From the NCBI GenBank assembly GCA_963737905.1, contig CAVTUQ010000004.1, positions 142,270 to 206,269 on the forward strand: a DNA stretch of 64,000 nucleotides, read 5' to 3'. The stretch is from an uncultured delta proteobacterium. GTDB lineage: Bacteria; Desulfobacterota; Binatia; UBA9968. The notes beneath the pieces were generated by a model, which did not search any database, had not been told where the DNA came from, and saw only the letters and a program-made list of their open reading frames with translations. Of this stretch, positions 23,314-27,457 are shown one piece after another. The translations under genes were made by a program, and so were the position numbers. Every line of letters begins with the position of its first letter. Positions within the stretch are counted from its first letter, which is position 1.

Positions 23314-24090
23314 CTAGACAGGGTGGTTGTTGATAGGCCGGTAAGGTGAGGCCGCCTCTAAGTGATCGCCGAGTTCCGTATAGAATTCGCTCGAACAGGG
23401 CTTAAAATTCTCCGGCCAATTGGCCGTTAACGTGCACAACAATCGTAACTGAATCGGTGCGTCAGTATTCACTCGCTTCACGCGTACCTGAACTGCGTCT
23501 GGATCATTTTCCAAGATTTCGAGAAAATCTCGCGAAATATATCTTGGACAATAGCCTACGATGGTCGCAGGATCATCTGTTCGGATCGCAATCGCACAAC
23601 CATCATAACGGTTCTGAGGGTCTGGCATGAGATATAACCTCTGCCCAACATGGAGTTTACTAATCCTGACCCGTGCTTCGTCCGGTAGATGCCGAACACC
23701 ATGACTAAAGAAATGAACTACATATTTACCCTCCGGGTCTCGCTCCGGGCACGGAAATACCGTTAAAGAATCTGTTTCTCGAACTCCTTCTGTACGACCT
23801 AGCAATACGAGCGGGTCTGCTTCATCTTCCCGCAAATCAAGCCAGCGCAAAAAATCCCTATACTCTGGCCTTTTCTTTGAAATGAGACGATTCGCGAACA
23901 GGGGTAATAATTCGTGGGATTTGTACACAGCATGCAAATCCTGCATAAACCCAAACGGAATGAAGTTTTTGGAAAGCTTCGCACCCTTCGTATAAACGAA
24001 CCGATAAACGCCATTCTCGGAGCTCAGTTTTCCTACCGGAAACCATTGCCGAGACTGCGGGTCTTGCCAAGCTAAATACAAGACTTTCAC
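23314..24090 (-). CDS. HipS/HipA-N-terminal-like domain fused to a HIRAN domain
   Basis: N-terminal WFPVGKL..YRFVY..LLPLFANRL; C-terminal LMPDPQNRYDGCAIAI..IVGYCPR (HIRAN). Confidence 0.8.
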   Translation of the reverse strand: MKVLYLAWQDPQSRQWFPVGKLSSENGVYRFVYTKGAKLSKNFIPFGFMQDLHAVYKSHELLPLFANRLISKKRPEYRDFLRWLDLREDEADPLVLLGRTEGVRETDSLTVFPCPERDPEGKYVVHFFSHGVRHLPDEARVRISKLHVGQRLYLMPDPQNRYDGCAIAIRTDDPATIVGYCPRYISRDFLEILENDPDAVQVRVKRVNTDAPIQLRLLCTLTANWPENFKPCSSEFYTELGDHLEAASPYRPINNHPV

Positions 24091-24091
24091 C

Positions 24092-25006
24092 TTACACCTC
24101 CAGCTTCAGAAGGCGTCGTTGGTTTAATTCGAGCATCTTCATAGCAAACTCCCTACCGGCGTCTGAGATTCGACCGGGTGGAACCTGGGCAAATATACCG
24201 TCAATCGCATTCTCTGAGATTTGCGCTAGCCGGTCAAGCCACGCCCTCGCTGCTGATCCCCTCAGTCTTGCTGCTTCCCTAAAAACAGCCAATGTTGGCA
24301 TGGGTTTACTACTTGCGGGCGAGCTGAAGAATGCAGAAAGAGGCTTTTCAATATACCAATCCATACCCCTCCGACGATCTTTTGTCGAGAGTCTTTGCAG
24401 TCTTGTTGCGTCTGTCTCGTTCCATCCTAAGCTCGATGCGTGATCGAACGTTGGCGCCAGATGTATGCTTCGATCCGAGCTAACTACAAAACCCCAATTC
24501 TCATGATGGCGGTCCTGATTTGCAATCCAGGCATCCAACATCAAATAGCCAACAAAAACATCGACTGCCGACCGAACATTACCGAACGTATTCCAATTAA
24601 GCGGCGGCTGAACGCCATCCTGTTTAACGATTGTCAAGACCAATCTGACCGTATGTTGGCTCACCCGATAAAACTTCTCTTTGGGATAGCTCTTATCTAG
24701 GCGCACTAAGACCTCATTCCCGGCTACTAACCTTCCACCAGAAGGGACAAAAATGCGAGACACAACCCCATGTTGACCTTTCCATGTCGCAAACTCATAC
24801 TCCGCGTGGGGTAGCCCGAGAAGTTCGCAGAGTTCACTGACAACCTTCTCGCTCCAGTCTTCGCCTGTTGCGCTTTCACCTTCGCTTCTATTCAGCTTGA
24901 ACAGATATCTATTGGAATGCTCATCGCTAAACCAAAACTTGGGTTTGGTCCCAAGCTGTTCTAACATGTCTCCAGCCTCATCCGGAACTACAATGACGGG
25001 ATACAT
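24092..25006 (-). CDS. HipA-like Ser/Thr kinase
   Basis: LGTKPKFW, YLFK, EDWSEKV, DAWIANQDRHHENW and LAPTFDHASSLG motifs. Confidence 0.85.
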   Translation of the reverse strand: MYPVIVVPDEAGDMLEQLGTKPKFWFSDEHSNRYLFKLNRSEGESATGEDWSEKVVSELCELLGLPHAEYEFATWKGQHGVVSRIFVPSGGRLVAGNEVLVRLDKSYPKEKFYRVSQHTVRLVLTIVKQDGVQPPLNWNTFGNVRSAVDVFVGYLMLDAWIANQDRHHENWGFVVSSDRSIHLAPTFDHASSLGWNETDATRLQRLSTKDRRRGMDWYIEKPLSAFFSSPASSKPMPTLAVFREAARLRGSAARAWLDRLAQISENAIDGIFAQVPPGRISDAGREFAMKMLELNQRRLLKLEV

Positions 25007-26353: not shown

Positions 26354-27457
26354 ATGATCACCGCTCATGCCGACGTGATTGGCAGCCTGCTCAGACCACC
26401 GAATTTGCTTGCGAGTCAAAAGCAACTCGCCGCTAGAACCATCACCGCTGCTGAATTCAAAGCGATCGAAGATCGCGCGGTCGATGACGCTATCGCGTTG
26501 CAGGAAGATGTGGGCTTGGACATCGTCACCGATGGTGAGATGCGGAGGCAGTCGTTTCAGAGCCAGATGACCGCCGCCGTGAGCGGGTTCGGTGAATTTA
26601 ATCTTGATGCCTTCCTATGGGGTGAATGGTACGACGAACAGGGAGTAAAGAAAACCCGTCGGCCTCGCCGGCTCGGGGCGGTCGGCAAGCTGAAACGAAT
26701 TCGTTACCTCTCGGCGGAGGAAGTTTCTTATCTCAAGAGCAGAACGAATCGAATTCCCAAAGTGACAGTTCCAAGCCCCAGCCTGTGGGCTAACTTTTGG
26801 TCGCCGAGTTATTCAAGAGACGCTTATCCAACGCTTGATGCGTTTCTGGGTGACATCGTTAACATTCTGCGCGAGGAAGTTGCCGAGCTGGTTCGCCTAG
26901 GAGCGAGCTACATTCAAATCGACGCGCCACACTACGGACTCTTGCTTGATCCCAAAACGAGGGGCTTTTATGAGAGGCGGGGTTGGAGCCTCGATCAATG
27001 GCTGAGTCAGGGGATCGAGCTGGACAACGCGATCATAGATGGTTTTTCCAATGTGACTTTCGGATTTCATGTCTGACGCGGCAACCAGGGCAGCCGGTGG
27101 CTGTCTCAAGGAGGTTATGAATCGATCAGCCGGGAGCTTTTTCGTAGGCTAAAGGCGCAAAGACTGTTGCTGGAATACGACGATCCTCGCTCCGGCTCCT
27201 TTGAGCCACTCAGAGACGTGCCCGGGGACAAGTTTGTGATTCTAGGACTCATCACGACAAAGCGGCCGGGGCTTGAACCCATCGAGCTATTGCAGCGGCG
27301 AATCACGGAAGCCAGTCGGCATGTTCCGCTGGAACGACTTGGCCTCAGTCCCCAGTGTGGTTTCGCCTCTTCGATCATTGGCAACAATATTTCTCTTGAA
27401 GATCAGCGAAGAAAATTGGAGCTTGTCGTTAGGACTGCCGAAACTGTGTGGGGTTGA
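26354..27457 (+). CDS. Cobalamin-independent methionine synthase II (MetE C-terminal-like) family protein; probable selenoprotein with in-frame TGA at 27074-27076
   Basis: ADVIGSLLRP, TDGEMRR and IQIDAP, then HV[TGA]RGN continuing in the same frame to LLEYDDPRSG and LSPQCGFAS. The TGA sits at the HxC zinc-ligand Cys. Confidence 0.85.
27088..27106 (+). promoter_or_regulatory. Candidate bacterial SECIS hairpin
   Basis: GGGCAGCC-GGT-GGCTGTCT: an 8-bp stem with a G-first apical loop beginning 19 nt after the UGA. Confidence 0.6.

Follow-up and report, generated by a model that had tools for sequence, protein, structure and literature searches.

A candidate selenoprotein gene of the MetE-II type with a selenocysteine codon predicted in its zinc-ligand motif

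The catalytic C-terminal domain of the methionine synthase MetE belongs to the PF01717 family. In E. coli MetE, the zinc ligands are His641, Cys643, Glu665, and Cys726, and the homocysteine-binding residues are Ser433, Glu484, and Asp599, as given in the portion of Price et al. 2021 (PMC7857596) covered here. The same portion describes MesA to MesD, short MetE-like proteins with a maximum of 386 residues. They have retained the residues for zinc and homocysteine and take the methyl group from donors other than methyl-folate, and MesD is defined among them by its adjacency to MesX (DUF1852, PF08908). The window, i.e., the whole 64,000-nucleotide stretch of an uncultured delta proteobacterium that was analyzed (contig CAVTUQ010000004.1, positions 142,270 to 206,269), contains a gene of this short type at 26354–27457 (+ strand), in which an in-frame TGA occupies the place of a conserved Cys. 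As the best overall explanation, this very likely represents an intact selenoprotein gene, in which selenocysteine (Sec) at residue 241 would replace the Cys of the H-x-C zinc motif.

The nearest solved structure to the window protein was 1YPX, which we take to be from Listeria and for which we know of no established function. Its title is 'putative vitamin-B12 independent methionine synthase family protein', and its NCBI name is 'cobalamin-independent methionine synthase II family protein'. It has the same single-domain architecture and length and the same HxCRGN, LEYD, and SPQCGF motifs as the window protein, but Cys where the window gene has UGA. The alignment with 1YPX covered residues 5–367 (E = 6e-47; 1.6e-61 with a profile). 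PF01717 (MetE catalytic domain, Meth_synt_2) matched residues 8–339 with 61.3 bits against a cutoff of 21, and the family membership is directly supported. Membership in the full-length MetE family (TIGR01371/PRK05222) failed, with 41.7 bits on TIGR01371 against a cutoff of 929.95 and a single domain of 367 residues, and no dedicated model of NCBIfam release 20.0 was passed by the window protein. The window protein has the PF01717 domain in common with E. coli MetE, together with motif counterparts of the zinc ligands and putative ones of the homocysteine-binding residues. It differs in that it lacks an N-terminal folate-binding domain, would carry Sec for Cys643, and has about 11 more residues between the HxU motif and the Glu. 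Since the folate-binding domain is lacking, the methyl donor cannot be assumed, and the protein is a 'core' MetE-type enzyme. It resembles MesA to MesD in this short core type with the zinc motif and putative homocysteine-binding residues; however, those proteins are not described as selenoproteins in the covered portion of Price et al. 2021. MesX had no match in the host genome, but the same search matched in 0 of 14 control genomes.

The gene consists of a single 367-codon frame at 26354–27457 (+ strand), which starts with ATG at 26354 and ends with TGA at 27455–27457. Its sole interruption is another TGA at 27074–27076, the predicted Sec codon 241, in the context T-F-G-F-H-V-[TGA]-R-G-N-Q-G-S-R-W-L. 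The list of open reading frames (ORFs) splits the gene here into 26354..27076 and 27167..27457. The original prediction had joined both ORFs into one frame broken only by this TGA, and the translation of 26354–27457 bore this out. The coding sequence (CDS) was regarded as complete based on the PF01717 match, the 1YPX alignment, and the orthologs. Logan contigs from three DNA studies spanned 27074–27076 and showed TGA, with no alternative base there among the differences listed (X1 record 5, X5 records 16 and 17, and X2 record 11, the last of which begins just 8 nt 5' of the TGA). One of the Logan runs covering the TGA may be the source sample of the metagenome-assembled genome (MAG) itself. 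The runs carried soil and freshwater as habitat labels. In the RNA run X20, one metatranscriptome contig (26965–27131, 95–99% alike) crossed the TGA and the hairpin downstream of it. This contig was not taken as evidence of expression because it is single and of low depth and the library may contain DNA.

The conservation of the TGA was analyzed at several distances from the window gene. A search of 40 relatives gave an ortholog in 23 genomes, with 63–79% identity and a single in-frame TGA in each, and these orthologs were alignable with the window protein from residue 1 to 366/367. All 24 clade loci, i.e., the window and the 23 relatives (Binatia-type MAGs), had the TGA at the same position of the H-x-[TGA]-R-G-N motif; the count is 22 of 22 without L036 (G012) and L054 (G006), which come from unpublished genomes. 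Each of the 24 loci continued after the TGA with a frame of 125–128 codons, most often 126. In a sample of 301 genomes from the class, 14 gave a match at E ≤ 1e-120; all 14 had TGA and fell within two families of one order. Furthermore, 80 loci were fetched from named genome records, and the motif pattern matched 79 of them (all except L129), with TGA in 31 and TGC or TGT in 48. Hereafter, loci with TGA at this column are called Sec forms and those with TGC or TGT Cys forms. The TGA forms carried labels of at least eight phyla (Binatia/'Deltaproteobacteria', Acidobacteriota, Gemmatimonadota, Methylomirabilota, Poribacteria, Chloroflexota, Bacteroidota, and Latescibacterota). The closest database protein (P0002) retrieved 80 loci from metagenomes, and TGA was present in every one of them. 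The conserved UGA is thus a direct observation, and it is in all likelihood a Sec codon, as judged from the Cys of homologs at this column and the contigs of other runs.

The database proteins P0002 and P0003 (80% and 75% identity) display C at the Sec column. Their assignment as close Cys forms was withdrawn given the TGA in all loci retrieved with P0002, and they were not counted as Cys forms. The displayed C may stand for U, or some sources may already translate through the TGA. Owing to the status of these two proteins, the 14-sequence alignment A1, which was used to retrieve related loci, mixes Sec and Cys forms.

Paralogs with 38–47% identity in the 40 relatives almost never had an in-frame TGA, and the paralogs in the host genome had TGC or TGT at the column and no such hairpin. 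Three further short MetE-II paralogs, all with Cys and 41–43% identity, were located in G000 (C7:41049-42173, C21:74944-76041, and C37:99215-100357). The host genome therefore has a small family of short MetE-II enzymes. Stray lesions were found in two paralogs of about 40% identity: L227 (G015:C157) had an in-frame TGA off the Cys column, and L228 (G025:C1:3088900-3090900) had lost its N-terminus. These defects look like real lesions, unlike the conserved TGA of the orthologs.

Selection on both sides of the TGA was estimated in a deduplicated set of 47 distinct Sec forms and 48 Cys forms. Among the 47 Sec forms, the ratio of nonsynonymous to synonymous substitution rates (dN/dS) by the Nei-Gojobori method (NG86) was 0.111 5' of the TGA and 0.149 3' of it. 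The comparison of the window with its 23 clade relatives gave 0.082 upstream and 0.105 downstream. These values are rough because dS is near saturation, but they are still far under 1. In codons +1 to +30 after the TGA, which in the window extend up to the next possible start at 27167, the proportion of nonsynonymous differences (pN) was 0.243, compared to 0.652 for synonymous differences (pS). No in-frame ATG, GTG, or TTG was present within 44 codons after the TGA in 13 of the 47 Sec forms. The downstream half, for which the original prediction had considered relaxed selection as a refutation, is under purifying selection, and this coding constraint is directly supported.

Bacterial selenocysteine insertion sequence (SECIS) elements lie in the CDS 16–37 nt after the UGA, and their apical loop requires G and U. 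The minimum-energy fold of the window sequence had an upper stem of 8 bp, including two G-U pairs (27088–27095 with 27099–27106), an apical loop GGU at 27096–27098, and a lower helix of 2 bp (27085–27086 with 27110–27111). The gap from the TGA to the loop was 19 nt, so the 8-bp stem with a GGT loop 19 nt after the stop was recovered as originally described. The SECIS-type hairpin was therefore placed within the CDS at 27085–27111 (+ strand) based on the fold, the conservation of pairs, the constraint on the Arg codon in the loop, and its position and size. In 38 distinct Sec-form sequences, 90.8% of the alignment cells paired, compared to 28–68% with slid partners, and the four pairs that close the loop were never broken. 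The hairpin is conserved in this respect, with slight covariation. The arrangement is similar to that of E. coli fdhF-type genes and the host selD, in which an in-frame UGA at a Cys-homologous site is followed directly in the CDS by a hairpin with a small G-U loop. Unlike in such genes, the window stem is encoded by a peptide that is also conserved in Cys forms. A C>T variant at 27094 was present in the X5 and X20 contigs; it is synonymous (AGC to AGT) and changes a C-G pair of the stem to U-G, as in loci L062 and L065.

The codon for the Arg that forms the loop differed between the two forms. Among the 47 Sec forms, it was CGG in 41, CGT in 6, and CGC in 0, which yields a GGU or GUU loop. Among the 48 Cys forms, it was CGC in 33, CGG in 8, CGT in 5, and CGA in 2. 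As an internal control for codon bias, the Arg directly after the U/C column used CGC at similar levels in Sec forms (25/47) and Cys forms (25/48). The entropy of the loop codon was the lowest of 88 columns in Sec forms (0.55 bits, rank 1) and ordinary in Cys forms (1.33 bits); these 88 columns hold a conserved amino acid that at least four codons can encode, and the median over all of them is 1.50 bits. In 44 distinct metagenome sequences, the loop codon was CGG in 37 and CGT in 7. The loop constraint is directly supported, and the need for G and U fits the recognition of the SECIS apical loop by SelB. On the Sec/Cys tree, parsimony gave 10 changes, of which only 3 were forced by well-supported branches. 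In these 3 supported contrasts, the loop codon moved in the same way in 2.3 on average and never in the opposite way. In terms of sequence, the Cys form differs from the Sec form at just two sites, namely the Cys codon (TGY to TGA) and the third position of the Arg codon in the loop. This two-site difference may explain the repeated exchange of Cys and Sec. The conserved peptide G-S-R-W-L is also present in Cys forms, so the stem pre-exists there and offers a concrete and testable route to a new selenoprotein.

The host genome contains selA (606.9 bits), selB (409.8 bits), and selD (381.4 bits), all above their cutoffs and adjacent at C29:71024-75669. The host selD itself has a UGA (KAAG-U-AAKLGP), followed 33 nt later by a 6-bp stem with a 3-nt GUU loop. 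Thus, the Sec machinery except selC is directly supported. The tRNA-Sec was found in 5 of 5 relatives (74–77 bits, nearly identical, 91 nt), including G002 of the same genus, and the one-contig genome G025 has both tRNA-Sec and the TGA form. Furthermore, all five Sec-form genomes from other phyla that were examined had selB. Of the four sel genes named in the original prediction, selA, selB, and selD were located in the host, whereas selC was confirmed in the relatives but not in the host assembly.

As a separate observation in the host genome, an ArsM-like gene with an in-frame TGA (WAA-U-IGGAL) and a downstream hairpin was located on contig C4, about 68 kb before the window start and outside the window. 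Judging by these features, this gene is a second candidate selenoprotein of the host.

The putative zinc site was examined with the motifs of 1YPX and 3RPD. HICRGN, LEYD, and SPQCGF of 1YPX were in register with the window protein, and HICYG, LECH, and NCG of 3RPD fell on the same columns. His239 (codon CAT, 27068–27070, + strand) belongs to the H-x-U motif and aligns with the H of HICRGN and HICYG. Glu274 (codon GAA, 27173–27175, + strand) of the LLEYDD motif, which aligns with LEYD and LECH, would correspond to E. coli MetE Glu665. Cys335 (codon TGT, 27356–27358, + strand) of the SPQCGF motif aligns with SPQCGF of 1YPX and PDCGL of the fungal MetE 3PPF and would correspond to Cys726. These three residues were invariant in A1 and are the presumed zinc ligands beside Sec241. 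S11, E62, and D190 were also invariant in A1 and align with the GS, GE, and D-P motifs of fungal MetE. We infer from the motifs and the 1YPX/3RPD alignment, rather than from E. coli MetE itself, that H239, U241, E274, and C335 are the counterparts of the MetE zinc ligands; likewise, S11, E62, and D190 would be equated with S433, E484, and D599. The claim that the TGA falls in an H-x-C zinc motif followed by a later PxCG is supported by these alignments and the MetE ligand list, with LSPQCGF as the later motif. If Sec is inserted, Sec241 is probably a zinc ligand.

In the proposed mechanism, SelB with Sec-tRNA(Sec) would read the UGA at 27074–27076 as selenocysteine, and it would be recruited by the hairpin in the next 35 nt of the CDS (stem 27088–27106, loop GGU). 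The predicted product is a 367-residue single-domain PF01717 protein of the short 'MetE-II'/1YPX type, in which Sec241, His239, Glu274, and Cys335 would hold the catalytic zinc. The zinc would activate a thiol (or selenol) substrate for alkyl transfer, and the substrate would probably be an amino acid such as homocysteine. Methylation of a homocysteine-type thiol by the window enzyme has a chance slightly short of even, and a betaine- or selenoneine-related donor or substrate is a tentative and rather doubtful proposal. Selenium insertion, zinc binding by Sec, and the reaction are what we infer here. The recoding mechanism is canonical; what is unusual is to have Sec in a zinc-ligand motif of an enzyme for non-redox alkyl transfer. 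To our knowledge, nearly all known selenoproteins use Sec for redox chemistry. Sec coordinates Mo or W in FdhA and Ni in [NiFeSe] hydrogenases, according to the covered portion of a 2026 review (PMC13188914). These enzymes share with the proposed window enzyme a Sec as ligand of the catalytic metal; however, they are redox enzymes, and in the window enzyme a redox-inert metal, zinc, would serve as the Lewis acid for alkyl transfer.

The genes around the window gene and the related loci were also analyzed. The neighbours in the window were a divergent dienelactone hydrolase gene upstream and a convergent TauE/SafE gene downstream, followed by UbiD-like and threonine synthase genes. Across the 95 loci, the biggest cluster of neighbour ORFs was a convergent downstream ORF in 19 Sec loci, and its representative from L045 matched TauE/SafE. 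Of the 47 Sec loci, 5 had a SenA-like gene at a distance of 3 kb or less, and none of the 48 Cys loci did. On the NF041186 model (selenoneine synthase SenA, cutoff 420), these genes scored 515 bits in L077, 502 in L095, and 520 in L104, and those of L077 and L095 were under the EgtB cutoff. In three Methylomirabilota loci and one unclassified locus (L077, L081, L083, and L095), the Sec-form gene was located between egtD-like and SenA-like genes. The egtD-like gene of L077 had 380.8 bits on TIGR03438, and the cluster of egtD, the Sec MetE-like gene, and senA extended over L077:1936-7106. A ProV/OsmF-type betaine ABC transporter (ProV-like ATPase and OsmF-like binding protein) followed in L077, L081, and L095, the loci that were scanned downstream. 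By its gene content, this cluster resembles a module for selenoneine or hercynine that includes a dedicated transporter. In L104:3007-6816 (Latescibacterota MAG), a transglutaminase-like gene came next after the Sec-form gene, then SenA and a partial SenB, of which the first 124 residues (174 bits) were present before the locus end. In L105:1409-4110 (Anaerolineales MAG), the gene immediately 5' of the Sec-form gene, in the same orientation, encodes a methyltransferase of the MttB family (trimethylamine/quaternary amines); a DDE transposase was present two genes downstream in this locus. A search of the host genome gave no EgtD-like gene at E ≤ 1e-10, and its EgtB-like matches were weak (29% identity). 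The link to selenoneine or quaternary amines is a lead for the family and its substrate, not a finding for the window gene.

Several results weigh against a selenoprotein gene with a Sec-containing zinc site. The 66-nt hairpin region was no more stable than shuffled sequences (z = 0.02). With loose SECIS criteria (at least 8 bp, a loop of 3–9 nt, G in the first two loop positions, and 16–37 nt after the TGA), a comparable hairpin followed 1072 of 40000 random TGA triplets of the host genome (2.7%). On its own, the hairpin is a weak argument; what goes beyond chance is how well the TGA and the loop are conserved. Covariation was slight, with compensatory change at one pair in 3 cells, and RNAalifold kept just a 5-bp core. 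The stem was equally stable in Cys forms (mean −11.2 vs −12.0 kcal/mol) and is largely dictated by the protein sequence, namely the conserved G-S-R-W-L. Furthermore, the association of Sec with the loop codon rests on related sequences, and its 3 robust contrasts are too few for a sign test. The tRNA-Sec was not found in the host assembly by ARAGORN (44 tRNAs), Rfam RF01852, or BLAST with the tRNA-Sec of relatives, and the best RF01852 matches were Leu and Ser tRNAs under the cutoff. Since the assembly is 87% complete and the relatives carry tRNA-Sec, selC was read as unassembled, and it is probably missing through an assembly gap. selB was also present in 4 of 5 Cys-form genomes, so its presence is necessary but not discriminating. 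For the protein, the best NCBIfam models missed their cutoffs (PRK06520, 234.6 vs 313; PRK06233, 209.2 vs 576), and the equivalence of H-x-U with MetE H641-x-C643 rests on the motif and 1YPX/3RPD, not on a full residue alignment with MetE. No operon partner was present in the neighbourhood of the window or Binatia loci, which gave no functional clue.

A recent nonsense pseudogene with a coincidental hairpin would fit the split of the gene at the TGA by gene callers, the unexceptional hairpin (z = 0.02; 2.7% of random TGAs), and the missing tRNA-Sec of the host assembly. However, 24 of 24 clade orthologs (63–79% identity) have the same TGA, as do 31 further loci from named genomes and all 80 metagenome loci, and downstream dN/dS remains about 0.15 with dS near saturation, while the real lesions of paralogs lie elsewhere in the gene and are unshared. 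The shared TGA column and the constraint on both sides rule out a pseudogene for practical purposes, leaving it the least probable of the alternatives, and they also argue against a split gene. In a split enzyme, translation would stop at the UGA and the C-terminal 96–126 residues would be made separately, for which the in-frame TTG at 27167 opens an ORF of 96 codons. The 30 codons from the TGA to this TTG are nevertheless constrained at the protein level, and starts after the TGA are not conserved and are missing from the first 44 codons in 13 of 47 Sec forms. Readthrough with an amino acid other than Sec would have to accommodate a gene whose own terminator is TGA and a column with Cys in 48 homologs, a pattern that suits Sec but not a reassignment to Trp or Gly. 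Taken as one alternative, a split enzyme or non-Sec readthrough is very improbable, if marginally less so than the pseudogene.

Sec could also be inserted without being a zinc ligand. It would then serve as a catalytic nucleophile or bind a substrate that contains selenium or a metal, and the enzyme would carry out a reaction other than the zinc-activated methylation of a thiol, for example a selenoneine or hercynine step. The SenA-type genes near Sec loci but not Cys loci (502–520 bits against the cutoff of 420), their company of egtD (TIGR03438) in four loci and partial SenB in L104, and the MttB-family gene upstream in L105 all point in this direction. On the other hand, Sec and Cys forms alike have invariant His239, Glu274, and Cys335, as expected of an intact metal site; the association with selenoneine is limited to about three lineages; and the host genome offers no more than the weak EgtB-like matches. 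This alternative is unlikely, although more probable than a pseudogene or a split enzyme. Sec241 as a zinc ligand of an intact selenoprotein remains the preferred explanation. A broader version of it is speculative and would more probably fail than hold: a widespread unlisted family with Sec as a first-shell zinc ligand, acting as a methyltransferase from quaternary amines (betaine, hercynine, or selenoneine) to homocysteine or a selenol, with a SECIS preformed by the peptide, a two-mutation Cys/Sec switch repeated across phyla, and a tie to selenoneine in some phyla.

Published lists of selenoproteins were compared with this gene. The 2026 review 'Recent advances in exploring the composition and evolution of the prokaryotic selenoproteome' has 119 families and subfamilies in its inventory, and neither Table 1 nor the covered text contains an entry for PF01717, MetE, or methionine synthase (PMC13188914). 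A MetE-like selenoprotein is also unmentioned in the main texts, supplements aside, of deep-Sep (PMC12013277), BSepDB (PMC13326102), the Haft 2022 preprint, and Chaudhuri & Yeates 2005, and the methionine synthase in PMC9402790 and PMC8318568 is MetH only. Full-text literature searches gave no description of such a protein, with supplementary tables, which could hold one, outside their coverage. Thus, no prior description was found in the parts of the published lists examined, and by its sequence features the window gene is very probably a genuine selenoprotein gene of a family absent from them. If this is true, Sec in the zinc site of an alkyl-transfer enzyme extends the roles of selenium in proteins, and the natural Cys/Sec pair is suitable for tests of how a ligand tunes zinc reactivity. 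Because annotation pipelines split this gene or drop it from many MAGs of soil, freshwater, and marine origin, the selenoproteome as well as methionine and one-carbon metabolism are scored wrongly in the lineages concerned.

Upstream of the gene, the window also contains a pair of adjoining genes on the opposite strand at 23314–25006 (−), in which a gene with a HipA_C kinase-like domain (24092–25006) adjoins a HIRAN-domain gene (23314–24090). This pair may be toxin-antitoxin or defence-like.

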